This document shows positions 1-22,858 of a stretch of 24,154 nt of DNA, one piece after another. The DNA lies in the IMG/VR virus record IMGVR_UViG_2537562172_000007; one strand, written 5' to 3'. Position numbers and translations under genes: made by a program. Under the pieces are notes generated by a model. The model saw only the letters and a program-made list of their open reading frames with translations. It was not told the origin of the DNA and ran no database searches. Source of the DNA: a virus. Lineage: Duplodnaviria > Heunggongvirae > Uroviricota > Caudoviricetes. Position 1 is the stretch's first letter, and each line of letters starts with the position of its first letter.

Positions 1-1284
1 TTACAGACTTCTGGAAGGTTGCGCAGCTCTTACAACACGCGGTTGATCTTCCGCAGCGTCTTCCAGCGCACTTAAATCACGGTCTTTCACCTCTGGCATT
101 TTCAGCGCAGAGATTAAACCAATCACTGAATATGCCATGATCATAATGGCGATCGGATACCAGGATTCCGTCATGGTGCAGAAAATACCCGCCAGGATAG
201 GACCAAAACCGGAAGCGATAAGACCACCAATTTCTTTAGAAATAGCCATCCGGGTAAAGCGGTTTTTACAGCCGAACATTTCTGCCATGGTAATGTTTTC
301 CAGAGCAAATAATCCCAGCACCGCACAGTTATGAATCACAATCAGTGCAACCATAATGGTGCTCGGGGCATAGCTTTTATCTACAATGATAGAAAGCATT
401 GGCCATGCCAGCACAATCGCGGAGGTATTCATAATAATATACGGGATCCGGCGACCAATTTTATCGGATAACCAACCAAGGAACGGAATGGTCATAAAGC
501 CGAGAATCGAACTGATCATCAATGCATCTGTTGGAATTGCTTTGTTAAACAATAACGTCTGCACTAAATAGCCTGCAAGGAAAGTCTGAATTAACCCGGA
601 GTTACCCGCCTGACCAAAACGCAGCCCTGTTGCCAGCCAGAAGGATTTGCTCTGGAACATGCTACCAGCAGGTGCAGGTTTTGCTGTCGGTTGGTTACTG
701 TCGTTAACCTTCTCAAAGACCGGGCTTTCTTTCAGATTCATACGCAACCAGATAGCAAAGACCATCACGACAACACTCGCCAGGAACGGTATACGCCATC
801 CCCACGCCAGCAGTTCCTCTTTACTGAGAATGAAGAACATAAAGGCCCAGATTGCCGTTGCGCTCAAGGTTCCGCAGTTAGTTCCCATAGCCACAAATGA
901 GGAGATAATTCCGCGCTTACCTTTTGGCGCATATTCCGCCAGCATCGTACCGGCACCGGAAATTTCCGCACCTGCACCCAACCCCTGAATAATACGCAAC
1001 GTCACCAGCAAGATGGGTGCAAAAACACCAATCTGTGCATAGGTCGGTAACACACCAATTAAGGTGGTACAGATCCCCATCATGGTGATGGTAATAAAGA
1101 GCACTTTTTTACGCCCTATTCTGTCGCCCATTTTGCCGAAAATAAATGCTCCGACAATACGCGCCACATAACCTGCACCGTAGGTTCCCATTGCCAGAAT
1201 TAACGCCATTGCCGTTGATGATTCAGGAAAAAATATTTCATGAAACACTAACGCTGCGCCGAGCGAATATAACTGGAAATCCAT
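1..1284 (-). CDS. ydfJ: MFS / metabolite:H+ symporter family transporter, 5'-truncated at the prophage junction
   Basis: 427-aa ORF with ATG start and multi-TM hydrophobic profile; MFS signatures GDRIGRKK and LVTLRIIQGLGAGAE. N-terminus starts inside the conserved region, consistent with loss of about 25-30 N-terminal codons. Symbol from recalled K-12 Qin context. Confidence 0.8.
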   Translation of the reverse strand: MDFQLYSLGAALVFHEIFFPESSTAMALILAMGTYGAGYVARIVGAFIFGKMGDRIGRKKVLFITITMMGICTTLIGVLPTYAQIGVFAPILLVTLRIIQGLGAGAEISGAGTMLAEYAPKGKRGIISSFVAMGTNCGTLSATAIWAFMFFILSKEELLAWGWRIPFLASVVVMVFAIWLRMNLKESPVFEKVNDSNQPTAKPAPAGSMFQSKSFWLATGLRFGQAGNSGLIQTFLAGYLVQTLLFNKAIPTDALMISSILGFMTIPFLGWLSDKIGRRIPYIIMNTSAIVLAWPMLSIIVDKSYAPSTIMVALIVIHNCAVLGLFALENITMAEMFGCKNRFTRMAISKEIGGLIASGFGPILAGIFCTMTESWYPIAIMIMAYSVIGLISALKMPEVKDRDLSALEDAAEDQPRVVRAAQPSRSL

Positions 1285-1886
1285 AATTCACAGGTGTTTT
1301 TTCCCATCCTGTGGTTTCCTTGGCGTTTTCTAGGTTTTTCAGATAGTTGCATTTTTTAAAAAGCATCCTAAGTTCGATCTCAGTGTCTATCTGGGGCCCA
1401 TTTCTGTCCCATATATGCCCCAAAAAAACTCCTCAACAGATAAGTAGTTTTTTCATGGAGTTACGCGTAAAATCAATAACGGCTGGAAATCATTCAATAC
1501 TCGCACTATCGAAAAATTTACCAGCCAACCGCAGCACGTTCTTGCATAAGGCGTGTCTGCGGTTTTTCAACTATTCAGATACATCACTCCCATCACATTC
1601 ATTCCTCCACATCAAAGGCATATAGGCTATATCACCTTGATATTTTTCTTCTTCAGATAAAAACTGTTATCTATGTATACTTTTAAACCCAATCCGTGTA
1701 GAGTCTCTGCATAAGATAGTTTGCAGTTGCCACTTCAGCTTGCGCCATAAACCGCCTGATTTTTGCCGCCATCTGTTAGCATTCCTGTATACCTGAAACG
1801 ACAATGTTTATCTACGAACTTTAAGAACACCCAGGATAAAAATTGTCAACTATATCATATATAACACATTACTAATTCGAGGCTAT

Positions 1887-2000
1887 ATGAACAGCATACT
1901 GATAATCACTTCGCTCCTTATCATATTCAGCATTTTTAGTCATGCTCTAATAAAATTAGGGATTGGCATATCCAATAACCCAGACAAAACCGATGTATAA
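1887..2000 (+). CDS. small hydrophobic peptide, 37 aa ([37 protein letters not shown])
   Basis: ATG at 1887 preceded by GAGG with 5-nt spacer; single predicted TM helix plus polar tail; below the 60-aa cutoff of the ORF track. Confidence 0.3.
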
Positions 2001-2068
2001 GTCAACATATCCTGAATCAGACATACAATATCGCAATGAAAATCAATAATATTTTAAGGAATATATTC

Positions 2069-2302
2069 ATGAAATCAAAAGACACCCTAAAGTGGTTCCC
2101 TGCGCAGCTTCCTGAAGTCAGAATTATCCTAGGGGATGCTGTAGTGGAAGTAGCAAAACAGGGAAGACCTATCAATACCAGAACATTGCTTGATTACATT
2201 GAAGGAAACATAAAGAAAAAATCATGGCTGGATAACAAAGAATTATTACAAACAGCGATATCAGTTCTTAAAGACAACCAAAATTTAAATGGTAAAATGT
2301 AA
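2069..2302 (+). CDS. ydfK: YdfK/YnaE-family cold-shock-induced prophage protein
   Basis: ORF 2036-2302; internal ATG at 2069 (MKSKDTLKW...) has an AAGGAA Shine-Dalgarno 7 nt upstream, the first ATG at 2036 has none. Position left of pinQ as in Qin and Rac. Confidence 0.7.
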   Translation: MKSKDTLKWFPAQLPEVRIILGDAVVEVAKQGRPINTRTLLDYIEGNIKKKSWLDNKELLQTAISVLKDNQNLNGKM

Positions 2303-2618
2303 TATAATAAACTTACTTTTTTATCATTTTTCCACTTTAACAACATTTTGCTCCACTTTTCCACGACCAAACAACTTGAAATCTGGTTAAAATAACACGC
2401 AACACTATTCTTCTTCCTTGAGTCCGCCCGGAACTCGAAAAACAAACCGAGTTAAAGCCATTTTTCACAAAATCGATTTTGGGTCTCACCAAAGTTACGG
2501 GGTTGCATACGCATTCGTTTATTTTCGAACGTGTACATACAAATATGCACAAAAATAATCAAAATTATTTTCTGAGATGCATTATGATATGAACACCAAT
2601 TTCGTATAGAGTCTCACT

Positions 2619-3209
2619 ATGTCTCGAATTTTTGCTTACTGTCGGATATCAACGCTGGATCAGACCACCGAAAATCAACGCCGGGAAATCGAAAGTGCAG
2701 GTTTTAAAATCAAACCTCAGCAAATAATCGAAGAACACATTAGCGGCTCAGCAGCAACCAGTGAGCGTCCTGGTTTTAACCGGTTGCTTGCTCGCCTGAA
2801 ATGTGGTGATCAATTGATTGTGACAAAACTGGATCGCCTTGGTTGTAATGCAATGGATATCAGGAAAACAGTGGAACAACTGACCGAAACAGGTATCAGA
2901 GTGCATTGCTTAGCATTGGGGGGCATTGACCTGACCAGTCCAACAGGAAAAATGATGATGCACGTAATTTCAGCAGTCGCTGAATTTGAACGAGACCTTT
3001 TACTTGAACGCACTCATTCCGGGATAGTAAGAGCCCGCGGCGCAGGGAAACGTTTTGGTCGACCACCTGTGTTAAATGAAGAACAGAAACAGGTGGTATT
3101 CGAACGAATTAAGTCAGGTGTAAGTATAAGTGCCATTGCCCGGGAATTCAAAACCTCGCGGCAAACCATTTTAAGAGCCAAAGCAAAACTTCAGACACCT
3201 GACATATAA
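2619..3209 (+). CDS. pinQ: serine recombinase, Pin/Gin/Hin-type DNA invertase
   Basis: 196 aa; N-terminal resolvase catalytic region (YCRISTLDQ with nucleophile Ser), C-terminal HTH; convergent with tfa/stf genes. Confidence 0.9.
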
Positions 3210-3306
3210 AAAATAATCTCGGTGTGAGATGCTTTACGTCTTCCAAGCCCCCTTCCTTGCCGTAAATGGAGAGATACATCTAATTATAGAATTTATATGT
3301 TTTACC

Positions 3307-3882
3307 CTACGGCAGTGCTGGCCATTCAATATCCGGTGCAGTTGATGTATCAACACGGTTCAGCAACACCCGATACTTTTTCCAGGCTTCCAGCAACAAG
3401 GTTTCTTCCTCCGTTGCGATCTCCAGATCCACAGCATCCTGAAGCGGCGCTATATGCTCACTGGCTATCTGCATCAGGCTGTTTTTTGTTTCTTCCGCCT
3501 CCCGGATCCGGAACAGTTTTTCTGCTTCCGTATCCTTCACCCAGGCTGTGCCGTTCCACTTCTGATATTCCCCTCCCGGCGATAACCAGGTGACATTTTC
3601 CGGTAACGGACCGAGTTCAGAAATAAATAACGCGTCGCCGGAAGCCACGTCATAAACCGTTTTACCCCGATGATCTTCAACGAGATGCCACGATGCCTCA
3701 TCACTGTTGAAAACAGCCACGAAGCCTGCCGGAATATCTGGCGGTGCAATATCGGTACTGTTTGCTGGCAGACCTGTATGAGGCGGAATATATGCGTCAC
3801 CTTCACCAATAAATTCATTAGTTCCGGCCAGCAGATTATAAATTTTTATGGTCCGTGGTTGTTCACTCATTCTGAATGCCAT
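3307..3882 (-). CDS. tfaQ: tail fibre assembly protein
   Basis: 191-aa ORF; start ATG overlaps stop of the upstream stf fragment (TAATG); recalled Tfa family sequence. Confidence 0.85.
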
Positions 3883-4190
3883 TACGCAAGCCTCACAATA
3901 TAGTTAAATGCGATGTTTTTGACGGTGTTTTCCGCGTTACCAGCAGCGTTAACGGTGATGGTATGTCCATGTGAACCAATCGCAACGGAGTGCGTATGAG
4001 CACCAATACCGACAGTATGTGCGTGTGCACCTGCGCTTGCAGCAGTACCCGATACAGAGTGCGTATGAGCGCCTGCAGAAGAAGTGTTAACACTGTATTT
4101 AGAATAATCAGGTGATCCACTTCCCGGAGCACCACTGGAACCACCTGAAACAAATGTCATCGAATGGGTATGTGCACCGGCTGTCCCCAT
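3882..4190 (-). pseudogene. stfQ: side tail fibre protein, C-terminal fragment (His-rich GAHTHS repeats)
   Basis: 102-aa ORF ending ...[11 protein letters not shown] with repeated GAHTHS/GAHAHT motifs typical of lambda Stf C-terminus; reading frame differs from the upstream J fragment. Confidence 0.7.
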
Positions 4191-5305
4191 GCATTTACCG
4201 CCCGGACTGTCAGCCTGTAATTTCCCAGCGCCAGCTGCGTGAAGCGATATGTGGTTTCCGTCGTCCGGGCCGTGCTGACCAACCGCTCACTGCCGTCGTC
4301 CGCTGCCACGGTCAGGCGAAGCATAAAGCTCACCCCCTTCACCACCTTCGGCGTGTCCCAGCGCGCCAGCACCTGGTATTCCCCGCTGTCTGCGGTGACT
4401 TCTGCGGTCAGGTGCTGAACTGCTGGCGGCGTGACACCATTCACCGTGCCGCTCTGGTCACCGTCAAAGTGCGCCCCGTTATCCACGATGGCTTCTTTCT
4501 CCGGTACATGCTGCACGGCAGTGATGGCATACGTACCGTCATCGTTCTCACGGATACTCACACAGCGGAACAGGCGCTGACGCAGCGTCGGCAGCTTCAG
4601 CCCCCACACGCTGTACTCGGCAACGCCGTCAGGAACCCGGCTCACTTTCACCTTCACGCCGTCGGTGACGGACTGGACCTCCACGCTCACCGGATTACCC
4701 TGCCCGTCAACCAGGCTTATCAGCGTGGTGCCGGAGGATGGCAGCGTGATTTCACGGTCGAGCGTCAGTGTCCGCGTCTGGCTGTTCACCGCCAGCACGC
4801 GCCCGCCGATGCTGATCCCCGCATAGTCATCATCACAGATTTCAATGACATCACCTGGTACATGGCGAAGCCCTTCGGCACCCACGCTGAAGTCCACGGT
4901 CTGCGTTTCCAGCAGTTCCGTTTTAATCAGCCACAGCCCGGCTCGGTGCGCCTGCCCCCGCCTGGTACAGCCAAAGGCATCCATCTTCGTGACGTTACGA
5001 CCGTAACGGGCAATGGCCTGCGTGTCCTCCACAAGCTCTGTCGCCGTCTCCCAGCCGTTATCCGGGTCAATCCAGTTCACCTCAACGGCATTATGGCGGT
5101 CCTTCAGGGCGCTGAAGCTGTAGCGGAACGGCGCGCCATCATCCGGCATCACCACATTACTGCGGTTATAGGTCCACACCTTATCTGATGGTCGGTCCTG
5201 CACGAACGTCAGCGTCTGCCCGTTCCATACCGGCATACAGCGCATCGCCGACCGGCTCACCTTTTTCGTTCTGCTCATTACAGAAAAAATAACGTTCTCC
5301 ACCAA
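4157..5305 (-). pseudogene. lambda J (tail tip / host specificity protein) internal fragment
   Basis: 382-aa ORF; from about residue 20 it matches recalled lambda J residues ~360-740 (MRCMPVWNGQTLTFVQDRPSDK ... [22 protein letters not shown]), then diverges and stops. Confidence 0.75.
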
Positions 5306-5396
5306 CCTCTGTCAGGTCGATTTCCCAGAGCACCACGCTGGCCGACTGCTCCGCACGGGTGCATTCATTCAGTGTTTCCTGCCGGATAACCAACAC
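5181..5396 (-). pseudogene. lambda L (minor tail protein) N-terminal fragment, about 49 codons
   Basis: 71-aa ORF; residues 4-49 (IRQETLNECTRAEQSASVVLWEIDLTEVGGERYFFCNEQNEKGEPV) match recalled gpL N-terminus; the remainder is out-of-frame J DNA. Confidence 0.5.
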
Positions 5397-5631
5397 GGGC
5401 AGACTTCACCACATTCACCTCGCGGATGTAGTCGCTGCCCATCGCATTCATGATGGCCCGCTGAAAGGGCAGTGTTTCCCAGCGCCCTTCCTGGTATGCG
5501 GATTCTTTCGGGAGATAGTAATTGGCATCCGCCCATTCAACGGCGGTCTGTGGCTCCGGCCTGAACAGTGAGCGAAGCCCGGCGCGGACAAAATGCCGCA
5601 GCCTGTTAACCTGACTGTTCGATATATTCAC
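5365..5631 (-). pseudogene. terminase large subunit (lambda A) N-terminal fragment, about 82 codons
   Basis: 88-aa ORF MNISNSQVNRLRHFVRAGLRSLFRPEPQTAVEWADANYYLPKE... matches lambda gpA N-terminus up to ...ARVGY, then stops; overlaps the Nu1 3' end as in lambda. Confidence 0.8.
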
Positions 5632-6151
5632 TCAGCAACCCCGGTATCAGTTCATCCAGCGCGGCTGCTTTGTTCATGGCTTTGATGATATCCCGTTTCA
5701 GGAAATCAACATGTCGGTTTTCCAGTTCCGGAAAACGCCGCTGCACCGACAGGGGGATCCCGTCGAGAATACTGGCAATTTCACCTGCGATCCGCGACAA
5801 CACGAAAGTACAGAATGCGGTTTCCACCACTTCAGCGGAGTCTCTGGCATTTTTCAGCTCCTGTGCGTCGGCCTGCGCACGCGTAAGTCGATGGCGTTCG
5901 TACTCAATAGTCCCTGGCTGGAGATCTGTCTCGCTGGCCTGCCGCAGTTCTTCAACTTCCCGGCGCAGCTTTTCGTTCTCAATTTCAGCATCCCTTTCGG
6001 CATACCATTTTATGACGGCGGCAGAATCATAAAGCACCTCATTACCCTTGCCACCGCCTCGCAGAACGGGCATTCCCTGTTCCTGCCAGTTCTGAATGGT
6101 ACGGATACTCGCACCGAAAATGTCAGCCAGCTGCTTTTTGTTGACTTCCAT
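5606..6151 (-). CDS. nohA: terminase small subunit, Nu1 homologue
   Basis: 181-aa ORF MEVNKKQLADIFGASIRTIQNWQEQGMPV... matches lambda Nu1 along its length, including the N-terminal HTH. Confidence 0.9.
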   Translation of the reverse strand: MEVNKKQLADIFGASIRTIQNWQEQGMPVLRGGGKGNEVLYDSAAVIKWYAERDAEIENEKLRREVEELRQASETDLQPGTIEYERHRLTRAQADAQELKNARDSAEVVETAFCTFVLSRIAGEIASILDGIPLSVQRRFPELENRHVDFLKRDIIKAMNKAAALDELIPGLLSEYIEQSG

Positions 6152-6440
6152 TGTTCATTCCACGGACAAAAACAGAGAAAGGAAACGACAAAGGCCAAAA
6201 AGCCCGCTTTCAGCACCTGTCGTTTCCTTTCTTTTCAGGGGGTATTTTAAATAAAAACATTAAGTTACGACGAAGAAGAACGGAAACACCTTAAACCGGA
6301 AAATTTTCATAAATAGCGAAAACCCGCGAGGTCGCCGCCCCGTAACCTGTCGGATCACCGGAAAGGACCCGTAAAGTGATAATGATTATCATCTACATAT
6401 CACAACGTGCGTGGAGGCCATCAAACCACGTCAAATAATC
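6152..6440 (-). other. lambda-type cos region (cosB 6152-6328, cosN 6329-6340, cosQ-containing flank about 6341-6440)
   Basis: Reverse complement of 6152-6340 reads GGGCGGCGACCTCGCGGGTTTTCGCTATTTATGAAAATTTTCCGG... as at the lambda left end; 6341-6440 reverse complement matches the recalled lambda right end (...CACTTTACGGGTCCTTTCCGGTGATCCGACAGGTTACG). Confidence 0.8.
6329..6340 (-). other. cosN cohesive-end site (GGGCGGCGACCT on minus strand)
   Basis: Exact 12-mer AGGTCGCCGCCC on plus strand, the reverse complement of the lambda 12-nt cohesive end. Confidence 0.8.
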
Positions 6441-6539
6441 AATTATGACGCAGGTATCGTATTAATTGATCTGCATCAACTTAACGTAAAAACAACTTCA
6501 GACAATACAAATCAGCGACACTGAATACGGGGCAACCTC

Positions 6540-6773
6540 ATGTCAACGAAGAACAGAACCCGCAGAACAACAACCCGCAACATCCGCTTTCCTAACCAAA
6601 TGATTGAACAAATTAACATCGCTCTTGAGCAAAAAGGGTCCGGGAATTTCTCAGCCTGGGTCATTGAAGCCTGCCGCCGGAGACTGTGCTCAGAAAAAAG
6701 AGTTTCTTCTGAAGCAAACAAAGAAAAGAGTGACATTACTGAATTGCTCAGAAAACAGGTCAGACCAGATTGA
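6540..6773 (+). CDS. ynfO: small ribbon-helix-helix (Arc/MetJ-like) protein
   Basis: 77-aa ORF; basic N-tail, then a strand-helix-helix pattern (RNIRFP / NQMIEQINIALEQKG / NFSAWVIEACRRRL) resembling Arc-type RHH folds. Symbol from recalled Qin order. Confidence 0.65.
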   Translation: MSTKNRTRRTTTRNIRFPNQMIEQINIALEQKGSGNFSAWVIEACRRRLCSEKRVSSEANKEKSDITELLRKQVRPD

Positions 6774-6830
6774 AGCAATTTAGATAATCGTGCAGACTAC
6801 GCCCCCTCATATCACATGGAAGGTTTATCT

Positions 6831-7241
6831 ATGGATCAGGTAGTCATTTTTAAACAAATATTTGATAAAGTTCGAAACGATTTAAACTATCAATGGTTTT
6901 ATTCTGAGCTAAAACGTCACAATGTCTCACATTACATTTACTATTTAGCCACAGAGAATGTTCATATTGTATTAAAAAATGATAATACAGTGTTATTAAA
7001 GGGCCTAAAAAACATTGTGTCTGTCAAATTTTCAAAGGATAGGCATCTTATAGAAACGACCTCTAATAAGCTGAAATCCAGAGAGATCACATTTCAGGAA
7101 TACAGAAGAAACCTTGCTAAAGCAGGAGTTTTTCGGTGGGTTACAAATATCCACGAACAAAAAAGATATTACTATACCTTTGATAATTCATTACTATTTA
7201 CTGAAAGCATCCAGAAAACTACACAGATCTTACCACGCTAA
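6831..7241 (+). CDS. ydfO: DUF1398-like prophage protein
   Basis: ORF 6816-7241; ATG at 6831 has a GGAAGG Shine-Dalgarno 6 nt upstream, giving 136 aa; position after ynfO as in Qin. Confidence 0.7.
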
Positions 7242-7392
7242 ACCATAACGTCCGGCTTCTCTCACTCCTGAGCCGGACTGCATTGGTTTAATAAAAACCA
7301 TCAACAATTGTGATTTAGATATTCGGAACCATTCAAATATAACAAAACCCCGTAAAAACGAGGTTTATGGATAAATTTTATTATTGAATACA

Positions 7393-7566
7393 TCAGATTA
7401 AATTAATCTTGACATCATAGCTTTCAAGACCCGTCATTTTTTCCCGTGCGGTAAACTGAATACTGGTAACTTCTTTCCCGGTCTTTTTCTTAAGTTCAAT
7501 AATTTTTTTTGTTATATATTCAGAAATATCTGCTTCTGCTTTTGTTTTTAAGTTTTCAATATTCAT
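7393..7566 (-). CDS. gnsB: GnsA/GnsB family small protein, 57 aa
   Basis: Manually translated MNIENLKTKAEADISEYITKKIIELKKKTGKEVTSIQFTAREKMTGLESYDVKINLI; AAGAGGAAA Shine-Dalgarno upstream; absent from the ORF track because under 60 aa. Confidence 0.75.
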   Translation of the reverse strand: MNIENLKTKAEADISEYITKKIIELKKKTGKEVTSIQFTAREKMTGLESYDVKINLI

Positions 7567-8031: not shown

Positions 8032-8238
8032 CTTCATTTTCACTTTTTTAAATCCAACGACAGACGGCTGGCATTTAAGTATTGTGAAATATTATCAAAT
8101 GTAATCATCATTGATTTACAAAAGATACATTTTGCCCCGAAAGGATTCATGTCAGAAACATCAAAAGATGATGTTCTATACTGGGAACCATGACAACACG
8201 GGCATCTAAAGTGAATATGGTTTGTAATATTGTCTACC

Positions 8239-8451
8239 TCAAAGCGCCACTACATGAACAGCGGCAGGACCTTTAGGTCCGTTCTCAATACCAAATTCAA
8301 CTTCCTGATTCTCAGTTAATGTTTTGAAATCGTTGCTCTGAATTGCTGAGAAATGGACAAACACATCTTTGCTGCCATCTTTCGGCGTGATGAAACCAAA
8401 ACCTTTTTCAGGGTTAAACCATTTCACTAAACCAGTCATTTTGTTAGACAT
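8239..8451 (-). CDS. cspI: CspA-family cold shock protein
   Basis: 70 aa with cold-shock domain motifs KGFGFI and VFVHF; sequence consistent with recalled CspI. Confidence 0.9.
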
Positions 8452-8813
8452 AATTATTACCTTTTGAAGAAATTAGCCCTTGGGCAGAATGGTCCGAAAA
8501 AAAATATCAGAGAGAAAAACCAACAAGGAAATCTCAAGAGGTACAAATAATAAAATTATAACAATGACTGCTTCAGATAAATTTGTAACAAACCAGAACA
8601 CCATTAACGCATGATTAACCACCCATAGCAAGGATTACTTTTGTAAAGAAAAACACAGCAATGAAAGAATAGCTTTATTTATTAATAAAACGTGTCATTC
8701 TGATTAAGACCTTTTATCTTACCCTTAAGATTTCAGGAATTTTGGCTCATGGAAGAGTCCTTTTTATTTAAATTTTACATTCCGCGATGTAAATGTTCCG
8801 ATTTAATATTACC

Positions 8814-10838: not shown

Positions 10839-11122
10839 TTTGAGATTGTGGTGCTTTTTGTGGGAGTCATCCACTTACGCACTTTGTTTTGCCATGCCAG
10901 CAGTTAGCTTCTGCTGTAAAACTATTCATGCAGCAAACCTGCACTTCACCACAATGGTTAGCATACTTTTCCTGATTAAGATTTTGCCAAATATGCTAGC
11001 CATTGTTTCATGTATTGGACCTCCTTACTTTTTATTAAAGAGATCCAATATTCACTACTCTGTCCGTATCTCTACTCAGGCATCAGCCTTCTTCGTTATC
11101 GTATACAGACGAGCGATGAATT

Positions 11123-11338
11123 TTAATCAGTAATGATGACATTTGCTGCTGCAGGACCTTTAGCACCACTCTCTATAGAGAAGGTAACCTTTTGACCTTC
11201 AAATAAGGTTCGATAATTATCATTCTGAATCGCAGAAAAATGCACAAACACATCTTTACTACCATCAACAGGAGAAATAAAGCCGAAACCTTTATCAGCG
11301 TTAAACCATTTTACTAAACCAGTCATTTTATTTGACAT
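11123..11338 (-). CDS. cspB: CspA-family cold shock protein
   Basis: 71 aa [34 protein letters not shown]...; matches recalled CspB. Confidence 0.9.
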
Positions 11339-11638
11339 TCTACATTCCTTAACTTGAGCCTTTCGGCATAAATGGTTTGCATAACAGAAACGACTTCGTA
11401 CTTAATTGGAGAGACTCAAAGAAGGAATAAGTGAATAACACCTGAAATGAGAACTGCTTTAGTAAACTACTTCGTATATCGTCTGTTCTTCAAACCGACG
11501 CAATCATTAACGCATAGTTGAACATATGAAGCAATGTTTATTTTAGACATCCAGCCATCTTCAACCCCATCAAAAAACTATAGCTTTCTTCAGGAACGTG
11601 TGTATAGTGCGCCAAGTTATCAGTATTAAGGAATTTTT

Positions 11639-13038: not shown

Positions 13039-14088
13039 TTACGCCAGTACGCCAATTGCCAGCGCGCGATCGATAAAACGAAATATCAGCTCCAGTTGGG
13101 AGCCATACTTATCTTCAAATGCCACTGTATCCGTATGCAGCTCGTTGTGATGCTTTCTGCACAAAGGCAACACAAAGAGATCATGTGCTTTTGTTCCCAT
13201 TCCGCCCTGCCCGTGACCAATCAGATGATGCGGATCGTCGGCTGGCATACCGCAGCAAGCACACGGCTGTGTCTTAACCCAACGTGTGTATTTCTCCTTA
13301 ACCCAGCGGCGACGTTTAGGCAGCTTCATGAAAGATTCCGGAGACTCTGGATCAACGGTGATGCTTACCACCGTCTTTTCCTGTGGTGATTTTTGTTGCT
13401 GGTGGGCGTAAGGCAACGGTGCAAGATTTTTTGTGCGTTGTTTCAATATGCTGGTGGCGGTCTGCTCTCCCGGTACGATGTCGCTTTCGCGGTACACCGA
13501 GCAGATTTTTTCCGCTGGTAATCCCAGCGAACGACGCGATACAGCCTCAGGTAGTGCATCCACCACCTGATTGCAGACCGCCCACCAGGATAATTCAGCC
13601 AAAGATAATTCCCGCTCCTGCGTACCGCTTATTGCGTGACGGATGACGTCAATCACCCATGCTGTCAGATTTTGTTGAGCAAGCAGCTCCAGTGATTCCG
13701 ATGTCTGGTCACGCAGTTGGTTGTCGCAGTGCCAGCACAACACCATTGCGCCGGTACCATAACGGTGAATGACTGTTTCAGTGTGATGGTAATCGCCATT
13801 AGGCCACTGGCAGGATGTAACATGACGTAATAGCCAGTCGGACAATGCGCCAACGCCGCCAGCAGCACGAATCACCCGTTCGTTACTAAAAAACGGCAGC
13901 AATGTTTTGTCTTCCGCCAGCGGCTGGCGAACGGCAGGAACGACTCCGGATGGCAGATTACGCATGCTTTTTGGTTCCGGTTCCACCAGCACTCGAGGAT
14001 TATGAAATATCTGTATGGATTCACGGCCCGGCTTAAGGACCACCAGCCCAAGCTCAGGCACCAGAACAGGTCTAAGTAATACCCGCAC
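13039..14088 (-). CDS. ydfU: DUF968-like prophage protein with C-terminal HNH-like motif
   Basis: GTG start at 14088 preceded by TGGAGGTAAC; 349 aa; C-terminal motif CACCG...HHLIGHGQGG...PLCRKHHNELH fits the HNH pattern. Confidence 0.75.
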   Translation of the reverse strand: MRVLLRPVLVPELGLVVLKPGRESIQIFHNPRVLVEPEPKSMRNLPSGVVPAVRQPLAEDKTLLPFFSNERVIRAAGGVGALSDWLLRHVTSCQWPNGDYHHTETVIHRYGTGAMVLCWHCDNQLRDQTSESLELLAQQNLTAWVIDVIRHAISGTQERELSLAELSWWAVCNQVVDALPEAVSRRSLGLPAEKICSVYRESDIVPGEQTATSILKQRTKNLAPLPYAHQQQKSPQEKTVVSITVDPESPESFMKLPKRRRWVKEKYTRWVKTQPCACCGMPADDPHHLIGHGQGGMGTKAHDLFVLPLCRKHHNELHTDTVAFEDKYGSQLELIFRFIDRALAIGVLA

Positions 14089-16521: not shown

Positions 16522-16536
16522 GTGACAGCCGTATTG

Positions 16537-16560
16537 TGGCCCTCATCGGGCCACTTTTCG
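16537..16560 (+). terminator. rho-independent terminator of flxA
   Basis: GTGGCCC-TCATC-GGGCCAC followed by TTTT, 16 nt after the flxA stop. Confidence 0.65.
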
Positions 16561-16608
16561 CCATCAGCCTTTTCTTTAAAGACATATTATCTTTGTATCA
16601 TTTCTGAT

Positions 16609-18457
16609 AGTTAACATTACAAGATATAAGTAATGGACGCACTCCCAATTAGTCTATTTAAATCGCCACGAGTTTAACTGACAACCCATGATCAATTATG
16701 AATTGCAACTATTTCTGTAGTCACTTTTGTGGGGACAGTCCACAAAACTGCCAACATCCGCTTCTTGCTCTTAGCGGACATTAGCATAGGCTATTTACCA
16801 TAACGCCTCATTACGCGCACCGCCCAGACTGACTCAGCGCGTTTCTGGCATATCCCCGGTAAAACAAGTAACAAACCACCCGAAAATGAACACCAGAAAC
16901 GCGACTTAAGAATCTACCCTATGAATGGATATGCACTCAACCGAATCGATCTTGGTTTCAATCTTTTTTATCGGGATCAGGCTTCTTTTTAGGTAACTTC
17001 GGGGGCTTAACTTGCTGATGACTTTGCGTTCGGCGCGTAAGCCAGGGATGGTCAGCTTTAGGTTTAACATAGTATTTTGAGCGTAAATCAATACGGGCAT
17101 TATCCACTCGTTCATGGACACTCTTTTCATCATCCAGTGGTATAGGCTCCGGGCCATCAACATACTTTTCCCAGCCCAGCGCTTTCCCGTCATACAGAAC
17201 GTTAATTTCACCGTCAAAGTTCTCGCATACAGTAACAACCGAATGCCTAAGTCGATATCCCCGGCCCTCACTGCGTACCTGAAACGCACTGCTTTTGTAC
17301 TGGAAAGTGAGATTTTTAGACAGAACGCGCTTCGCCTGTAGGCTGAAGATATAACCCAGTTCCTCTTCAGAATGGTGCACATCAAGATGAGCATTATCAG
17401 TAGTACGAGGCGACGTAGCGAACCGGTTGTTATAGGCTTCAATAAAGGTCGGCAACCATGCATTTGCTGTTTCAATATCACTGATATTCTGAAGCCGCAT
17501 TTCTTTGACCAGCCTGTCCTGTAGTGTCTGATTGGCGCGCTCTACCCGCCCTTTTGCCTGCGGGCTGTTGGCATGGATTGGCTCGATGCCCAGTGTCTTT
17601 ATCGCACGAGTGAACTGGGTCAGCTCACCTTCCCGCTCTGGGTTATTTACCCTGAATATACTGTGTCTATCAGAGTAGAGAGCGAGCGGTACGCCATGAT
17701 CATTAAGGTAACCCCGGAGGGTTTCCATGTAAGCCCGGGTTGTTTCAGCAGGCACAAAACGCAACGCCATCAACGCACTGGTGGCATCATCAATGAAAAC
17801 GATCAGTGTACATCTGGGGCCTCGATTTTCAAACCAGTCATGAGGTGAGCCATCAATCTGGATCAGTTCACCGTAAGATGGTCGTCGCATGCGGCGTTGA
17901 TATATACGGGCAATTTTACGACGGCGTTCACGCCATAACCCCTCTTCTATCATCCACTTTCTGAGAGTTTCAACGGATAAAGATAAACCGTGTATCTCGC
18001 GCAATTTTTCGCACGCAAACGTAGGTCCAAAATCAGCGTAACGGCCTTTGAGGAGTGAAATTACTGTTGCTCTGAATTCAGTAGAAAAGGAATTATTAGG
18101 ACGCTTTCCACGTCGGTGGGAAACCAGACCAGAAGGCCCTTCATTTCTATACCGTTGCACCAGACGTTTAACCTGCCGAATAGAAATGCCAATGCGTGCC
18201 GCAGCTTGTTCCTGAATAATCTGAAGTCGGTGGAGTTCCTTATGACTCATCGTAACAGTCTCTTTGATCATGAAAAATCCCCCAGAGAATTGTCTGGGGA
18301 CATTTTAGAATGGTTCAAAGGGGACATTACAGCTTGGTGTTAACAATAGCCTGCTTCTCCGTGCCTTTCGGCACGTAAGAGGCTAACCTACATGTGTCTA
18401 GCATGAAATTGGCCTCAGATTAATGTTAAGCGTCTTGCAGGACGCGTAATGTTAACT
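16609..18457 (-). mobile_element. insertion sequence carrying one rve-type DDE transposase (family unassigned, IS481/ISNCY/IS21-like); boundaries tentative
   Basis: Tentative ends from a perfect 12-bp inverted repeat: AGTTAACATTAC at 16609-16620 and GTAATGTTAACT at 18446-18457; no target-site duplication recognised. Confidence 0.35.
16958..18271 (-). CDS. DDE transposase, retroviral-integrase (rve) fold with N-terminal HTH
   Basis: 437 aa; HTH region (IGISIRQVKRLVQRY), catalytic-core motifs LIQIDGS, ALYSDRHSIF and SPQAKGRVERAN; GGGGGA Shine-Dalgarno upstream of the ATG. Confidence 0.85.
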   Translation of the reverse strand: MIKETVTMSHKELHRLQIIQEQAAARIGISIRQVKRLVQRYRNEGPSGLVSHRRGKRPNNSFSTEFRATVISLLKGRYADFGPTFACEKLREIHGLSLSVETLRKWMIEEGLWRERRRKIARIYQRRMRRPSYGELIQIDGSPHDWFENRGPRCTLIVFIDDATSALMALRFVPAETTRAYMETLRGYLNDHGVPLALYSDRHSIFRVNNPEREGELTQFTRAIKTLGIEPIHANSPQAKGRVERANQTLQDRLVKEMRLQNISDIETANAWLPTFIEAYNNRFATSPRTTDNAHLDVHHSEEELGYIFSLQAKRVLSKNLTFQYKSSAFQVRSEGRGYRLRHSVVTVCENFDGEINVLYDGKALGWEKYVDGPEPIPLDDEKSVHERVDNARIDLRSKYYVKPKADHPWLTRRTQSHQQVKPPKLPKKKPDPDKKD

Positions 18458-18605
18458 GGGGCTTTTCTCTATCTGCCGTTGGTGTCCATGCCCGAGGCAG
18501 ATAGCCTCAAGCACCCGCAGTCATTCTACTTAACTAAGATTTCCCCGCAAACCGTTTTTGTCCAGCACAGTAAATATCCAACTAAACCAATGGAGTTCGC
18601 TGTAT

Positions 18606-18785
18606 TTACCGCCAGTATTCAATGCACATGACCGCCATGAACACCCCTAAAAAAAGGGCATTTATATATCCAAATATTAATATCAAAACATCAACTTTTT
18701 CCATATACCTTGCTGTGAAGATGATGGGCATACATGATGCGAACAACCAGAACGCAACAAACAAAAACTGCAATGCGTTTTTCAT
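18606..18785 (-). CDS. small two-TM membrane protein, 59 aa
   Basis: ATG at 18785 preceded by AGGAGG with 4-nt spacer; MKNALQFLFVAFWLFASCMPIIFTARYMEKVDVLILIFGYINALFLGVFMAVMCIEYWR has two hydrophobic helices. Confidence 0.4.
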   Translation of the reverse strand: MKNALQFLFVAFWLFASCMPIIFTARYMEKVDVLILIFGYINALFLGVFMAVMCIEYWR

Positions 18786-19564
18786 TATTCCTCCTACAAT
18801 CAATGTGCAATTACATTTAAACACACCTCAATTTGGCCGGACATATAAATATCTAAACCAGAAAAAATCACTTACATAGCGTTACAAACTCTTTAGTCTA
18901 AAGGTTCATCGTAAAACATTCCCCATACTTATCAGTCCGTTCCGCGCCAGGTAGCTCATTGCCTTATCTGGCAACCTGTAATCAGGTTTCCGCTTTTTCA
19001 GTTGGCTGGTCGTTTAACCGACATAGTTAATCCATTAATCTAGTTGCCGGATGTTGGTGGATTTTCGCGTTTTAGTTGTTCATAAAAGTGCACAGCTTTA
19101 ACCAGTTCTTCTGATGTAACTGGGACTGGTGAGGCAGTGAATAAGGCCTGAATTTGATAGTTCGGCCTGTCGTTACAATCCTCTTTTTTCGGTACATATT
19201 TCCAGTCACCAGACCACTACTTCCCCTGAAAGTCCGTAACGCCTTTTTTCACGTAGCGATATCGCCATGCCACTGGTTTTGCTTGCCCCGCCGTTTCATG
19301 CCCTTCCTGATAATTAATCTCGCTCATTCATCGCCCCACTCATCACAATATGCTTCGACCGGAGTTTTTCCCGCTTCATAGTCATCACGCTAGGATTCGA
19401 CATCAGCAGCACTTCCACCGCGTAACTCACCATAGTCCATTAATAGTTCATCCCGCTCTTCAAAACTGATGTTATATTTAGCTGAACAAAAATCAGCCAC
19501 TTTGTTCTTCCTCATCGTCTTTTATTTCGTGGTATGAGTAATTGCAGTAGTTAAAGAAAATTTC

Positions 19565-19675
19565 TTATGCTCCGTCATGAATTTCCTCAGGTGTTGCGTC
19601 ATCGTCCACTTCGAATACATCCTCAAAATCTCCACCAGCTATTCCCGTTTCAATAATAATTTTGAACTTTCGCAT
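19565..19675 (-). CDS. hypothetical acidic 36-aa protein (MRKFKIIIETGIAGGDFEDVFEVDDDATPEEIHDGA)
   Basis: Manual translation; a GCCGCCC-GAAA-GGGCGG hairpin sits directly upstream of the ATG with AGGAGG further 5'; very tentative. Confidence 0.2.
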   Translation of the reverse strand: MRKFKIIIETGIAGGDFEDVFEVDDDATPEEIHDGA

Positions 19676-19937
19676 TTCACTACCGCCCTTTCGGGCGGCC
19701 TCCTGATGTTCTGAGGGTGCAGAAATCCATCCGGTTAAGGATTAAATTTTATTTACAGAACTGAATTTAATTATTCAGATATACGTATCTGTAGCCTTAC
19801 GAATCTACTCACTGGATGCCTCTTTCATAAAAATAATCCAGTGGGTTTTATCGTTTTTTCCCTGTTCGTTGACAGATAACAGGTTTTCTGTCTGTCAGTG
19901 CCAGAATCTGGCTTACCGGTATTTGCGTTTCATTCCA

Positions 19938-20294
19938 TTAAAAAATCAGAACGCCGTGCGGCCTCAACACCCGAAAGGCTTCTTTAAATCTCTGTCGCGA
20001 ATCATCACGCCAGGCATCTTTATTCAGCCGTCCATATTTCTTTCCCATCCAGGCGTTATCACCAACACTCTCAAGATACGGAGGGTCTAATACAACCATC
20101 GAAAAAGATGCGTCTGCAAATGATAATGCACGAAAATCTGCGATAATGTCAGGGCTGATAATCAAGCGTCTCCCATTGCGTAATGTGTATCCTTCTTTTC
20201 TGATATCGCTGAATATCGCCCGTTCGTCAGACTTATCGAACCAGAACATGCGGCTGCCACAGCACATATCAAGAATGGTTGCCGGTGCACTCAC
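19938..20294 (-). pseudogene. N6-adenine/N4-cytosine (Dam-like) DNA methyltransferase, N-terminal fragment
   Basis: 118-aa ORF with SAM-binding motif I (ILDMCCGS) and catalytic motif IV (DPPY); ends before any target-recognition or C-terminal region; no MTase-like continuation in any frame downstream. Confidence 0.6.
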
Positions 20295-20557
20295 TGCGCC
20301 ACGTCCTGAAAATTACCCTGATAGAAAGCCAGTATGCGCTGCATAACTTCGCTCTTCCGGCACTCGCGACAGATTATGTTTAGGCGACTGTCGTAGCGAC
20401 GTATTTCTCCGTCAGGTGATGACCAGATAAGGTCCGGATCAACCACAGCAGGTTTCTTCACCTTTGCCCTCGAGAGTTTTTTGCGGGCGTTTTGCCAGTC
20501 CTTACGCGCCTGTTCAGAGGGGAATAACCCGTATCCGGAGCTTAAGTTGCACGCCAT
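20291..20557 (-). CDS. hypothetical protein overlapping the methyltransferase fragment start (GTGA overlap)
   Basis: 88-aa ORF with no Shine-Dalgarno at its ATG; an internal GTG at 20461 with GAGGG upstream would give 56 aa. Confidence 0.3.
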   Translation of the reverse strand: MACNLSSGYGLFPSEQARKDWQNARKKLSRAKVKKPAVVDPDLIWSSPDGEIRRYDSRLNIICRECRKSEVMQRILAFYQGNFQDVAQ

Positions 20558-22508
20558 TGGGTGGGTTAAGCATAAATGTATTCCTGGTGCTAAATGGCCC
20601 GAAATTCAGGCAGAGATGCGCATCTGGAAAAAACGTCGCGAAGGTGAACGCAAGGAAACCGGAAAATACACGTCTGTTGTTGATCTCGCCCGCGCCAGAG
20701 CCAATCAACAGTACACTGAAAATTCAACAGGAAAAATCAGCCCGGTCATTGCTGCCATTCATCGCGAATACAAGCAGACATGGAAAACACTGGATGACGA
20801 ACTGGCCTACGCTCTCTGGCCTAGTGATGTGGATGCCGGAAACATTGACGGCAGCATCCATCGCTGGGCAAAAAAAGAAGTTATCGACAACGACCGCGAA
20901 GACTGGAAGCGTATCTCGGCATCAATGCGCAAACAGCCTGATGCCCTTCGCTACGACCGCCAAACTATTTTTGGCCTTGTCCGTGAGCGTCCGATCGACA
21001 TTCACAAAGATCCCGTAGCACTGAACAAATATATCTGCGAATACCTGACGACAAAGGGCGTGTTTGAGAATGAAGAAACAGACCTGGGCACTGTTGATGT
21101 TCTCCAGTCATCAGAAACACAAACTGATGCAGTGGAAACTGAGGTATCTGATATCCCAAAAAATGAAACCGCGCCGGAAGCTGAACCATCTGTAGAGCGT
21201 GAGGGGCCGTTCTATTTCCTCTTCGCAGATAAGGACGGAGAAAAATACGGTCGCGCAAACAAACTCTCTGGTCTGGATAAGGCACTGGCTGCTGGCGCCA
21301 CTGAAATCACAAAAGAAGAATATTTTGCCCGAAAAAATGGCACATACACGGGCTTACCGCAAAATGTAGATACCGCTGAAGATTCAGAACAACCAGAGCC
21401 GATAAAAGTTACCGCTGACGAAGTAAACAAAATTATGCAGGCAGCCAATATCAGCCAGCCTGACGCCGATAAGTTGCTTGCTGCATCACGTGGTGAATTT
21501 GTTGAAGGGATTAGTGACCCGAATGATCCGAAATGGGTTAAGGGGCTCCAGACCCGCGATTCTGTGAACCAGAACCAGCATGAATCGGAACGGAACTACC
21601 AAAAAGCGGAACAAAACAGTCCAAATGCGTTACAAAACGAGCCAGAAACGAAACAGCCTGAACCAGTAGCGCAACAGGAAGTGGAAAAAGTCTGCACCGC
21701 CTGCGGTCAGACCGGCGGCGGCAACTGCCCTGATTGTGGCGCGGTGATGGGCGACGCAACATACCAAGAAACATTCGATGAAGAGTATCAGGTTGAAGTT
21801 CAGGAAGATGATCCGGAGGAAATGGAAGGCGCTGAACATCCACACAAGGAGAACACTGGCGGCAATCAGCATCACAATAGCGATAATGAAACTGGCGAGA
21901 CGGCAGATCACCCAATTAAGGTGAACGGTCATCACGAAATCACATCCACCAGCAGGACGTGTGACCATCTAATGATCGACCTTGAAACCATGGGAAAAAA
22001 TCCTGATGCCCCGATCATCTCAATAGGTGCAATATTTTTCGATCCGCAAACCGGAGATATGGGACCGGAATTTAGTAAGACTATCGATCTGGAAACTGCT
22101 GGCGGAGTCATTGATCGGGACACCATTAAATGGTGGCTTAAGCAATCACGCGAAGCGCAATCTGCCATTATGACCGATGAAATCCCGTTAGATGATGCAC
22201 TGTTACAATTGCGAGAATTTATCGACGAAAACTCCGGTGAATTTTTTGTTCAGGTTTGGGGAAATGGAGCCAACTTCGACAACACGATTTTGCGCCGTTC
22301 ATACGAACGGCAGGGGATCCCCTGCCCGTGGCGTTACTACAACGATCGCGATGTACGCACAATCGTTGAGCTGGGGAAAGCCATAGACTTCGATGCCAGA
22401 ACGGCTATTCCATTCGAAGGTGAGCGCCATAATGCACTTGATGACGCCCGTTACCAGGCAAAAATACGTTTCAGTTATCTGGCAAAAACTGATCCCGAGT
22501 CAGGCTGA
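20481..22508 (+). CDS. phage exonuclease with C-terminal DnaQ-like (DEDDh) 3'-5' exonuclease domain
   Basis: Exo motifs MIDLETMG, WGNGANFDNTIL and HNALDDARYQ in the last ~190 aa; acidic low-complexity linker with CTACGQTGGGNCPDCG zinc ribbon; start uncertain (TTG at 20481 or ATG at 20616). Confidence 0.8.
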   Translation: MRAFCQSLRACSEGNNPYPELKLHAIGWVKHKCIPGAKWPEIQAEMRIWKKRREGERKETGKYTSVVDLARARANQQYTENSTGKISPVIAAIHREYKQTWKTLDDELAYALWPSDVDAGNIDGSIHRWAKKEVIDNDREDWKRISASMRKQPDALRYDRQTIFGLVRERPIDIHKDPVALNKYICEYLTTKGVFENEETDLGTVDVLQSSETQTDAVETEVSDIPKNETAPEAEPSVEREGPFYFLFADKDGEKYGRANKLSGLDKALAAGATEITKEEYFARKNGTYTGLPQNVDTAEDSEQPEPIKVTADEVNKIMQAANISQPDADKLLAASRGEFVEGISDPNDPKWVKGLQTRDSVNQNQHESERNYQKAEQNSPNALQNEPETKQPEPVAQQEVEKVCTACGQTGGGNCPDCGAVMGDATYQETFDEEYQVEVQEDDPEEMEGAEHPHKENTGGNQHHNSDNETGETADHPIKVNGHHEITSTSRTCDHLMIDLETMGKNPDAPIISIGAIFFDPQTGDMGPEFSKTIDLETAGGVIDRDTIKWWLKQSREAQSAIMTDEIPLDDALLQLREFIDENSGEFFVQVWGNGANFDNTILRRSYERQGIPCPWRYYNDRDVRTIVELGKAIDFDARTAIPFEGERHNALDDARYQAKIRFSYLAKTDPESG

Positions 22509-22587
22509 TTCTTAATGTTCAACTGTCGCCGGTTGTGACTGGTATTCTGCAACCGGCGCTCGTCTGATGTAAGAGATAAAGAAATCG

Positions 22588-22839
22588 ATGAGCGAAGTAA
22601 TCATGATTGTCTCTCCCGGCAAATGGGTATCCGAAGAGCAGTTAATTGCGCTGAAAGGAATAAAAAAAGGTACGTTAAAAAAGGCCCGGGAAAAATCGTT
22701 TATGGAAGGAAGGGAATATAAGCATGTCGCTCATGACGGTATGCCATGGGATAACAGTCCATGCTTTTACAACCTGGAAGAAATTGATCGCTGGATTGAG
22801 CGCCAGGCATCAGCGAGACCAAGACGTCATCTTACTTGA
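22588..22839 (+). CDS. excisionase-like small DNA-binding protein
   Basis: 83-aa basic protein immediately upstream of the integrase, same strand; no strong sequence match recalled. Confidence 0.55.
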   Translation: MSEVIMIVSPGKWVSEEQLIALKGIKKGTLKKAREKSFMEGREYKHVAHDGMPWDNSPCFYNLEEIDRWIERQASARPRRHLT

Positions 22840-22858
22840 CTAAAAGCCACACTAACTA

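Follow-up and report, generated by a model that had tools for sequence, protein, structure and literature searches.

Can a cos site that has outlived its own terminase still be used by another phage? The question is raised by a locus in a 24,154-nucleotide window (the whole stretch of DNA that was analysed), for which the first-pass annotation had described an intact cos site and a full-length Nu1 gene next to a destroyed terminase large subunit, and had proposed that the remnant could be packaged by a superinfecting cos phage or that Nu1 could titrate the terminase of such a helper. We found that this interpretation holds in part: cos appears competent in sequence, Nu1 is intact and a helper could supply terminase in trans, whereas neither packaging with transduction nor titration is borne out.

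The region is the left-end stump of Qin, the cryptic lambdoid prophage that occupies ydfJ in E. coli, here in a rare variant that is less eroded than the Qin of K-12. The annotation of the closest complete genome, P13-6 (99.9% identical to the window), together with collinearity to K-12 Qin, shows that the locus interrupts ydfJ, flanked by ydfI and rspB, and that its genes follow the order known from Qin. Window positions 1-4070 are collinear with K-12 Qin at 98.6% identity (blastn), including the 3′ end of stf, which encodes the side tail fibre, and an intact tfaQ (3307..4088, minus strand; annotation), a segment 93.7% identical to lambda 21824-22538. In the P13-6 annotation the variant has the lysis genes essD, rrrQ and rzpQ and the antiterminator Q, and no replication module or immunity region. 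Its integrase and excisionase are annotated as complete and have full Pfam domain matches, and an 11-bp direct repeat, TTATGGATTTC, is present at both Qin ends in ydfJ, bounding an element of ~22.9 kb.

The variant shares with K-12 Qin the ydfJ insertion site, identical cosQ and cosN, segments that are 98.6-99.5% identical, and the order pinQ-tfaQ ... nohA-cos-ynfO-ydfO-gnsB-cspI-rzpQ-rrrQ-essQ-cspB/F-Q-rem-hokD-relBE-flxA. In contrast, K-12 lacks the last 5 nohA codons and the terminase large subunit fragment A′, with nohA fused directly to stfQ, whereas the window retains the full nohA, 82 A codons and fragments of L and J. The integrase intQ is inactive in K-12 (PMC3105296), whereas the integrase and excisionase ORFs are complete in the window variant. 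The two also differ in the cosB site R3 (G54>A in K-12, C53>T in the window) and in the dicBF region, which the window variant lacks (no DicF match in our search and no dic genes annotated). A defective Qin carrying cos and a terminase remnant is already known, and is a case of ordinary prophage decay. The substitution in lambda qin111 reportedly covers Q-S-R and reaches cos; we do not rely on it.

Alignment to the lambda genome ends supports the reading of the cos region as lambda-like. On the minus strand, window 6676-5386 aligns across the junction of circularised lambda, from 48167-48502 into 1-956. The 1292 bp contain 16 differences, one of which is a 1-bp deletion, and none of these lies in window 6676-6289 (100% identity with lambda 48167..52). 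This identical stretch includes the lambda right-end homology upstream of cosQ (6371..6676, minus strand; lambda 48167-48472), which overlaps the 5′ part of ynfO (6540-6773, plus strand), a gene that matches Pfam DUF3950. The cohesive-end 12-mer of cosN, GGGCGGCGACCT (lambda bp 1-12), is an exact match at 6329..6340 on the minus strand with flanking bases identical to lambda, and is intact as first described. It is the single exact copy in the whole window, where the chance expectation for an exact 12-mer (24 kb, both strands) is ~0.003. The packaging-termination subsite cosQ, the heptamer GGGTCCT (lambda 48473-48479; 6364..6370, minus strand), has the lambda sequence and the lambda spacing to cosN, without an indel in the interval, and is invariant in 12 of 12 aligned cos regions. 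Its coordinates and role are those reported by the Feiss laboratory; PMC4669245 is a further source for them.

Next to cosN and cosQ at the lambda distance lies a complex cosB with the order R3-I1-R2(inverted)-R1, which completes a lambda-type cos; R-site layout, spacing and contact bases were judged according to PMC9026076. The functional cos elements span 6176-6370. R3 (lambda bp 50-65; 6276..6291, minus strand), the critical TerS binding site, carries one change, lambda C53>T, at an unchanged distance from cosN and with no indel between the two relative to lambda. The best match to the IHF consensus WATCAANNNNTTR between R3 and R2, a candidate I1 core (lambda bp 79-91; 6250..6262, minus strand), is the same as in lambda, with 1 mismatch to the consensus in both; neither of the variants that the window shows at lambda 73 and 102 lies within this core, and both are common to several deposited phages. 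R2 (lambda bp 109-124, inverted; 6217..6232, minus strand) is identical to lambda, and the accessory site R1 (lambda bp 151-166; 6176..6191, minus strand) differs in its first base alone, C151>T, a change shared with phage PhiR70_1, and keeps the core CGTTTCC. The five cosB variants (53T, 73G, 102C, the bp 137 deletion and 151T) are each found in deposited lambda-like phages or in the K-12 prophage DLP12, and PhiR70_1 carries all five. The cosB and cosQ flanks had been called intact and lambda-like, a description with which these comparisons agree.

One could argue that such a cos is dead because C53>T, which alters the R3 core CGTTTCC, abolishes terminase binding in combination with the other cosB changes. 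R3 is indeed the most critical R site, in which single transitions can be severe (PMC9026076), and bp 53 is, as read from the sequence, the C of the CGTTTCC motif common to R1, R2 and R3. However, TerS contacts R3 at bp 55-63, with bp 56, 58 and 59 critical (PMC9026076); bp 53 falls outside this segment, all the contact bases are identical to lambda and the three critical positions are unchanged. The same T is found in PhiR70_1, in the Stx1a-converting phage Stx1_112808 and in DLP12, and lambda recombinants in which the DLP12 gene nohD replaces nu1 are viable, with junctions that cluster at cos (PMC3945230). On the position of the contact bases, the occurrence of 53T in phages and DLP12, and the viability of these recombinants, we rejected inactivation of cosB by the R3 change, and we consider a dead cos very unlikely. 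DLP12 (cos-nohD-aaaD) resembles the Qin variant in its lambda-type cos with the 53T variant, its full 181-aa Nu1 homolog and its short 5′ A fragment annotated as a pseudogene; the two are distinct prophages at separate loci, the end of the A fragment in DLP12 lies ~50 bp deeper in the gene, at a join with tfaD, and several bases upstream of cosQ differ.

The Qin cos is therefore very probably still a competent substrate, of which a lambda-specificity terminase could bind cosB and nick cosN. The proxies for this competence are the viability of the DLP12 recombinants and the sharing of all cosB variants with PhiR70_1. PhiR70_1 itself is presumed viable because GenBank lists it as a complete genome with E. 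coli C as the host; our literature search found no paper describing the provenance of PhiR70_1 or of the ECOR phages.

The terminase small subunit gene nohA (5606..6151, minus strand; annotated as nohA in the 99.9%-identical genome) is a full ORF of 181 codons, in line with the earlier claim of a full-length Nu1. Its product is identical to lambda gpNu1 at 179/181 residues, A75T and L132I being the sole changes; residues 1-74 and 133-181 are the same as in gpNu1, the N-terminal wHTH domain is intact, and neither the DNA-binding region of TerS nor its C-terminal region differs from lambda. NohA matches Pfam Phage_Nu1 over the full length of the profile (1-164/164, E=4e-101, 336 bits), and the codon changes relative to lambda are 6 synonymous and 2 non-synonymous. 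Scanning against a promoter consensus gave a single hit, which lies inside nohA, and no promoter-like site ahead of its start; shuffled sequence gives more such sites than the scan found here. No cognate full-length gpA is encoded at the locus, and a literature search for nohA, nohB, nohD and Nu1 found no relevant paper. The intact nohA, with its 2:6 ratio of non-synonymous to synonymous changes, and the perfectly conserved cos would also fit purifying selection; divergence that built up in live phages, or a recent gene conversion from such phages, would account for their conservation equally well.

The large subunit was correctly described as cut after about 82 codons. A′ (5365..5631, minus strand) consists of gpA codons 1-82 (5631-5386), all identical to lambda, followed by six foreign codons (PAGNTE) and a stop; the homology ends inside the P-loop. 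The P13-6 annotation treats A′ as a partial pseudogene, and its match to Pfam GpA_ATPase covers just positions 3-40/247 at 25.1 bits, below the cut-off of 25.6 bits. A complete ATPase with Walker A and B and the C-terminal nuclease are missing, residues 1-82 alone being left. The accompanying claim that everything between A and mid-J is gone has to be corrected: a 142-bp piece of the minor tail protein gene L (L′; 5250..5391, minus strand; lambda 13434-13575, about codons 3-49; blastn 98.6%), annotated as a partial pseudogene, sits between A′ and J′. A′ and L′ join across a short TAT/CC microhomology, and J′ (4177..5251, minus strand; annotated as partial) derives from the interior of the gene for the host-specificity protein (lambda 16534-17608; blastn 92.5%, 1075 bp). 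The span first given to the feature, 5181-6440, does contain the cos elements; its boundary at 5181 is merely the end of the fused L′-J′ reading frame.

These junctions suggest at least three illegitimate deletions, from A codon 82 to L codon 3, from L codon 49 to mid-J, and from J to the 3′ end of stf, which would have taken all head genes and most tail genes. Under this scenario, the survival of cos, nohA and the first 82 A codons would be an accident of deletion endpoints. Compared with the lambda packaging module, the locus has the same cosQ-cosN-cosB (R3-I1-R2-R1) layout but a TerL of 82 residues without a complete ATPase or a nuclease, and no portal, head genes or downstream cos; it therefore cannot act alone.

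In lambda, the cosB end enters the head first, followed by Nu1, then A and the genes beyond. Packaging from the Qin cos points to decreasing window coordinates, through ~5 kb of prophage remnant and then into the host genes ydfJ, ydfI, dcp, mar and lsr, the remaining 17.8 kb of Qin lying on the cosQ side of cos. No second cos was found downstream within 60 kb in P13-6, the one genome in which a partner site was sought. We propose that the lambda-specificity terminase of an infecting or induced phage would bind cosB, nick cosN and begin packaging leftward from the prophage into host DNA, and that this packaging could not run to completion for want of a terminating cos at headful distance. A cos terminase needs a second cos to complete its work, and tails cannot attach while uncut DNA protrudes (PMC6687093); cos phages lack lateral transduction (PMC12829572). 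Given the packaging direction and the lack of a second cos within that range, the proposed in-situ packaging and transduction of the remnant by a superinfecting cos phage is unsupported. The realistic consequences would rather be a terminase-made double-strand break, and a ~1.3 kb stretch of near-identical homology that could be a recombination or marker-rescue substrate for lambda-like phages, a role that we infer from the DLP12 case. A use of the Qin cos as the terminating cos for packaging from an upstream prophage was also considered and rejected: the scanned upstream flank in P13-6, reaching 58 kb, holds host genes alone and no cos.

The supply of terminase in trans, as the first-pass annotation had supposed, has precedents. 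A helper terminase acting on a passive chromosomal cos is the basis of the standard helper/passive-prophage assay, and such packaging works given two correctly spaced cos sites (PMC4669245); the O157 prophage Sp4, its nu1 broken by an IS, is yet packaged, most likely by the Sp14 terminase (PMC2669165). These tandem-prophage (Feiss) and Sp4/Sp14 cases resemble the Qin locus in that a trans terminase recognises a resident cos. They differ in offering either a pair of co-oriented cos sites separated by one genome length or a genome that has been excised and amplified, whereas the Qin locus has one cos, with no replication genes and no partner cos found.

Could the remnant nevertheless be mobilised by a lambda-like phage that supplies terminase and capsids, packages from the Qin cos and transduces? 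We regard this as very unlikely indeed, even with cos and Nu1 intact, with packaging in trans shown for passive cos sites and thought most likely for a prophage defective in its own terminase, and with a full integrase and excisionase and the TTATGGATTTC repeats delimiting an element whose dimer, at ~45.8 kb, would fit a lambda head. In situ, the packaged side holds just ~5 kb of Qin, and the unterminated DNA would block tail joining. No replication module or immunity region is annotated, so that no concatemers would be expected after excision, and K-12 Qin does not excise (PMC3105296). A narrower version, in which a Qin variant excises, multimerises by recombination and is helper-packaged as a cos-to-cos dimer (94% of the lambda length), we hold to be scarcely credible. 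If it were true, this "fossil" prophage would be a helper-dependent mobile element carrying relBE, hokD and cold-shock genes, a modest added example of helper-dependent cryptic-prophage mobilisation, which is already documented in O157 Sakai.

A different possibility is interference, in which NohA, the 88-aa A′ peptide or the chromosomal cos itself would sequester the terminase or proheads of an incoming phage and lower its yield. The intact nohA fits such a role, as does the retention in A′ of gpA residues 1-82, a region that in lambda contains the Nu1-interaction segment. An anti-helper strategy targeting TerS is real in phage-inducible chromosomal islands (PICIs), whose Rpp proteins act in this way (PMC9026076). 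However, the two NohA substitutions are conservative, and a protein so nearly identical to gpNu1 would be expected to be a normal, functional subunit rather than a poison. One chromosomal nohA, with no promoter-like site upstream, would face many replicating helper genomes, and one chromosomal cos would occupy no more than about one prohead for each copy of the chromosome. Furthermore, K-12-type and FDAARGOS_1337-type Qin lack A′ and have lost the nohA 3′ end, which argues against selection for either product. We consider interference highly improbable, and the suggestion that Nu1 titrates the helper terminase is not supported.

We also rejected a reading of the element as a PICI or other satellite, on gene content. 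Gram-negative cos-type PICIs such as EcCICFT073 are likewise chromosomal, with an integrase, a lambda-like cosN and the use of helper packaging proteins (PMC9026076). They have their own replication module and Rpp and a cosB of other sequence, and lack lysis genes and a phage Nu1; in contrast, the window variant retains Q and the lysis genes of a phage, its cosB is of the ordinary lambda type, its Nu1 is likewise ordinary, and its annotation shows neither a replication module nor rpp.

The useful outcome is negative and the locus itself matters little. It confirms, at the level of sequence, that retention of an apparently usable cos and a Nu1 homolog is common among the defective lambdoid prophages of E. 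coli. Such retained cos sites would be open to cutting by terminase and to recombination with lambda-like phages that enter the cell, the latter a recognised source of phage mosaicism, and would not be transducible units in their own right.

Lambda-type cos sites were found in 4589 of 5426 complete E. coli genomes (85%), with a median of 2 copies and up to 8. The window-type A′^L′ junction is present in 6 of these 5426 genomes and an A′^stfQ junction in 5 genomes, whereas the K-12-type junction of Nu1 codon 176 with stfQ occurs in roughly 370; a fourth junction, of Nu1 codon 169 with J, is found in FDAARGOS_1337. The K-12-type and FDAARGOS_1337-type lineages both cut into the nohA 3′ end. The comparison shows what appears to be a progressive and lineage-specific decay of Qin, with neutral decay probably ongoing. 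The sequence gives no sign that the cos-nohA block has been retained for function, and we infer that selection on it is probably lacking. All four Qin deletion variants seen keep cos and at least the first 169 nohA codons, which could hint at constraint or could simply reflect shared ancestry and few events.

The window represents Qin, a cryptic lambdoid prophage that sits in ydfJ of E. coli. Among complete genomes it is closest (99.9%) to porcine ETEC-like strains, O141:H4 P13-6 being one, and their annotation gives the gene order pinQ, tfaQ, tail fibre', J', L', terminase-large', nohA, ynfO, ydfO, gnsB, cspI, rzpQ, rrrQ, essD, cspB/F, Q, rem, hokD, relBE and flxA. Across common segments, the Qin of K-12 is 98.6-99.5% identical to the window. 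The cos/terminase remnant is of a kind already known, as is the prophage that carries it, and its particular deletion variant is rare but unremarkable; DLP12, the other cryptic prophage of K-12, has the same architecture of cos, full Nu1 homolog and short A stump (nohD-aaaD).

We found that the minus strand of window 6676-5386 is collinear with the circularised lambda cos junction (48167-48502 joined to 1-956) without rearrangement, with 16 differences in 1292 bp, including one 1-bp deletion, and 100% identity from lambda 48167 through bp 52 (window 6676-6289). Judged from this alignment, the similarity at cos is homology and not chance. The cosN cohesive-end 12-mer GGGCGGCGACCT (6329-6340, minus strand) is identical to lambda and has a single exact copy in the window, and cosQ (GGGTCCT, 6364-6370, minus strand) is likewise identical, with the cosQ-cosN spacing unchanged. 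Five differences from lambda fall in cosB: C53>T, A73>G, T102>C, deletion of A137 and C151>T. In the summary of criteria by Murialdo and Feiss, R3 covers bp 50-65, with contacts of the small terminase subunit (TerS) at bp 55-63, documented critical positions at 56, 58 and 59, and a cosN-cosB spacing that is also crucial (PMC9026076). The window keeps both this spacing and the contact bases at bp 55-63; its R2 matches lambda throughout, R1 has a single change, at its first base, and the top IHF-consensus match lying between R3 and R2, at lambda 79-91, is unchanged. In an alignment of 12 cos sequences, including eight deposited lambda-like phages and both K-12 cryptic prophages, each window cosB variant is found in at least one deposited phage and all five in phage PhiR70_1; 53T is also in DLP12, and A137 is kept by lambda alone (1 of 12). 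Terminases of lambda specificity can very probably use the window cos, and the alignment upholds the first-pass annotation, which had described it as intact.

In the deposited PhiR70_1 genome, whose cosB matches that of the window save one base, cosN reads GGGCGGAGACCT (C7>A relative to lambda), which could reflect natural variation of the cohesive end or else an error in sequencing or assembly. Between R2 and R1, a small GC hairpin directly upstream of nohA (window 6192-6205, minus strand), flagged as terminator-like in a scan, is altered from GAGGC-TTTTT-GGCCTC in lambda to GGGC-TTTT-TGGCCT through the loss of bp 137 together with 151T. Furthermore, lambda and Qin share every base of the lambda right-end 336 bp, cosN and bp 13-52, in the window strain (6289-6676) as in K-12, while just upstream of cosQ several bases differ in DLP12 and most other lambda-like phages. 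The cos-proximal right end of lambda is therefore of "Qin type", which hints at a recent exchange between lambda and Qin.

The nohA gene (5606-6151, minus strand) encodes 181 residues differing from gpNu1 at A75T and L132I only, its six further codon changes relative to lambda Nu1 being all synonymous, and the Pfam Phage_Nu1 model matches NohA end to end, in agreement with the claim of a full-length Nu1. The A' frame consists of 82 residues identical to gpA followed by PAGNTE and a stop, as expected from the reported cut after about 82 codons. The ATPase and nuclease domains are gone and the Pfam match is sub-threshold; the break lies within the gpA P-loop (KSARVGY|S), and the peptide, which retains the gpA N-terminus, could in principle bind Nu1. 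Most Qin copies are without A'. A few bases of microhomology mark the join between the A' stump and lambda L 13434-13575 (window 5391-5250), and this 142-bp L' is followed by J 16534-17608 (window 5251-4177) and then by the stf 3' end and tfa. The A'-L', L'-J' and J'-stf joins imply at least three deletions. The observation that everything between A and mid-J is gone is accordingly confirmed as to the loss and corrected as to "everything", the L fragment having survived.

The first-pass annotation had further proposed that a helper cos phage could package the remnant. In the standard Feiss assay, a helper terminase works in trans on a chromosomal cos that is repressed; this needs an upstream initiating and a downstream terminating cos with one genome length between them (PMC4669245), and trans-packaging has been inferred for the terminase-defective O157 prophage Sp4 (PMC2669165). 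Packaging begins at the cosB-bearing end and proceeds through Nu1 and A (PMC4669245), at the window cos towards decreasing window coordinates, where only about 5 kb of Qin precede host ydfJ, ydfI, rspR, dcp, marRAB and lsr. No second cos was found elsewhere in the window, within 60 kb downstream in P13-6, or in the upstream flank scanned, which reaches 58 kb and holds host genes only. Cos terminases depend on a second cos, and tails do not attach where the DNA is left unterminated (PMC6687093); lateral transduction is not performed by cos phages (PMC12829572). Because the geometry is wrong, no second cos lies in reach, one is required and lateral transduction is not available, in-situ transduction of the remnant is not expected, and helper action at this cos would amount at most to abortive initiation and a double-strand break. 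The interpretation is partly supported: cos and Nu1 are intact and terminase action in trans is plausible, but packaging or transduction of the remnant is not supported.

The other proposal, that Nu1 titrates a helper's terminase, is not borne out. Being essentially wild-type gpNu1, NohA would add to the subunit pool and not poison it. Its gene is single copy, and a consensus scan of 5300-7400 gave fewer promoter-like sites than shuffled sequence, with one match inside nohA and none upstream of its start. Lineages in which the nohA 3' end is destroyed are common.

Packaging after excision would be another route. In K-12 the Qin integrase (intQ) is inactive and there is no excision (PMC3105296), whereas the window variant has ORFs for a 431-aa tyrosine integrase and an 83-aa excisionase (DUF1233) with full Pfam domain matches (22588-24154); the P13-6 annotation lists both genes as complete. 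Each prophage end, within the split ydfJ, carries a copy of the 11-bp direct repeat TTATGGATTTC (window about 1271-1281; 4880-4894 of a further sequence, L015), and the two copies bound an element of about 22.9 kb, a dimer of which would fit the lambda head. As neither an immunity region nor a replication module is annotated in the variant, concatemers would not be expected to form, and excision followed by packaging as a dimer in a lambda head is highly improbable.

Among 5426 complete E. coli genomes, in which Qin junctions and cos sites were counted, window-type Qin (A' codon 82 joined to L') occurs in 6, S3-type Qin (A', with its breakpoint 1 bp away at lambda 955, joined to stfQ) in 5, and K-12-type Qin (Nu1 codon 176 joined to stfQ) in about 370; FDAARGOS_1337-type Qin (Nu1 codon ~169 joined to J') was seen in 1 genome, a count that comes from no census. 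These junctions indicate that across Qin as a whole neither A' nor the NohA C-terminus is protected. Lambda-type cos, searched with a 206-bp query from cosQ to R1, is present in 4589 of the 5426 genomes; the median copy number is 2 and the highest 8.

Gene A is cut within 1 bp in two Qin variants, at lambda 956 in the window (5380-5392) and at 955 in strain S3 (L016 2570-2580), and the partner of A' differs, being L codon 3 in the former and internal stfQ in the latter. Neither variant is derived from the other by simple deletion, which suggests that a breakpoint was used more than once or that an older junction underwent a replacement. The K-12-type (L004, 5798-6368) and FDAARGOS_1337-type (L018, 878-1453) NohA retain the DNA-binding N-terminus, and the deletion fusion puts foreign sequence in place of the last 5 and about 12 residues, respectively. 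Provided that gpA binds gpNu1 at the C-terminus of the latter, such altered NohA could in principle bind cosB without recruiting the large subunit.

At about 16900-22500 the window lacks the immunity and division-inhibitor region (dicA/dicC/dicF/dicB) present in K-12 Qin, and Rfam gave no DicF match in the window. This stretch instead carries a fragment of an ISNCY transposase, several pseudogenes, a methyltransferase gene and a truncated gene encoding a 3'-5' exoribonuclease domain. Rfam matches at or above the gathering score, all on the minus strand, are IS009 inside tfaQ (3341-3539), two cspA-type thermoregulator leaders, one each upstream of cspI and cspB (8212-8597 and 11107-11499), and the sok antisense RNA of the hokD locus (18345-18516).
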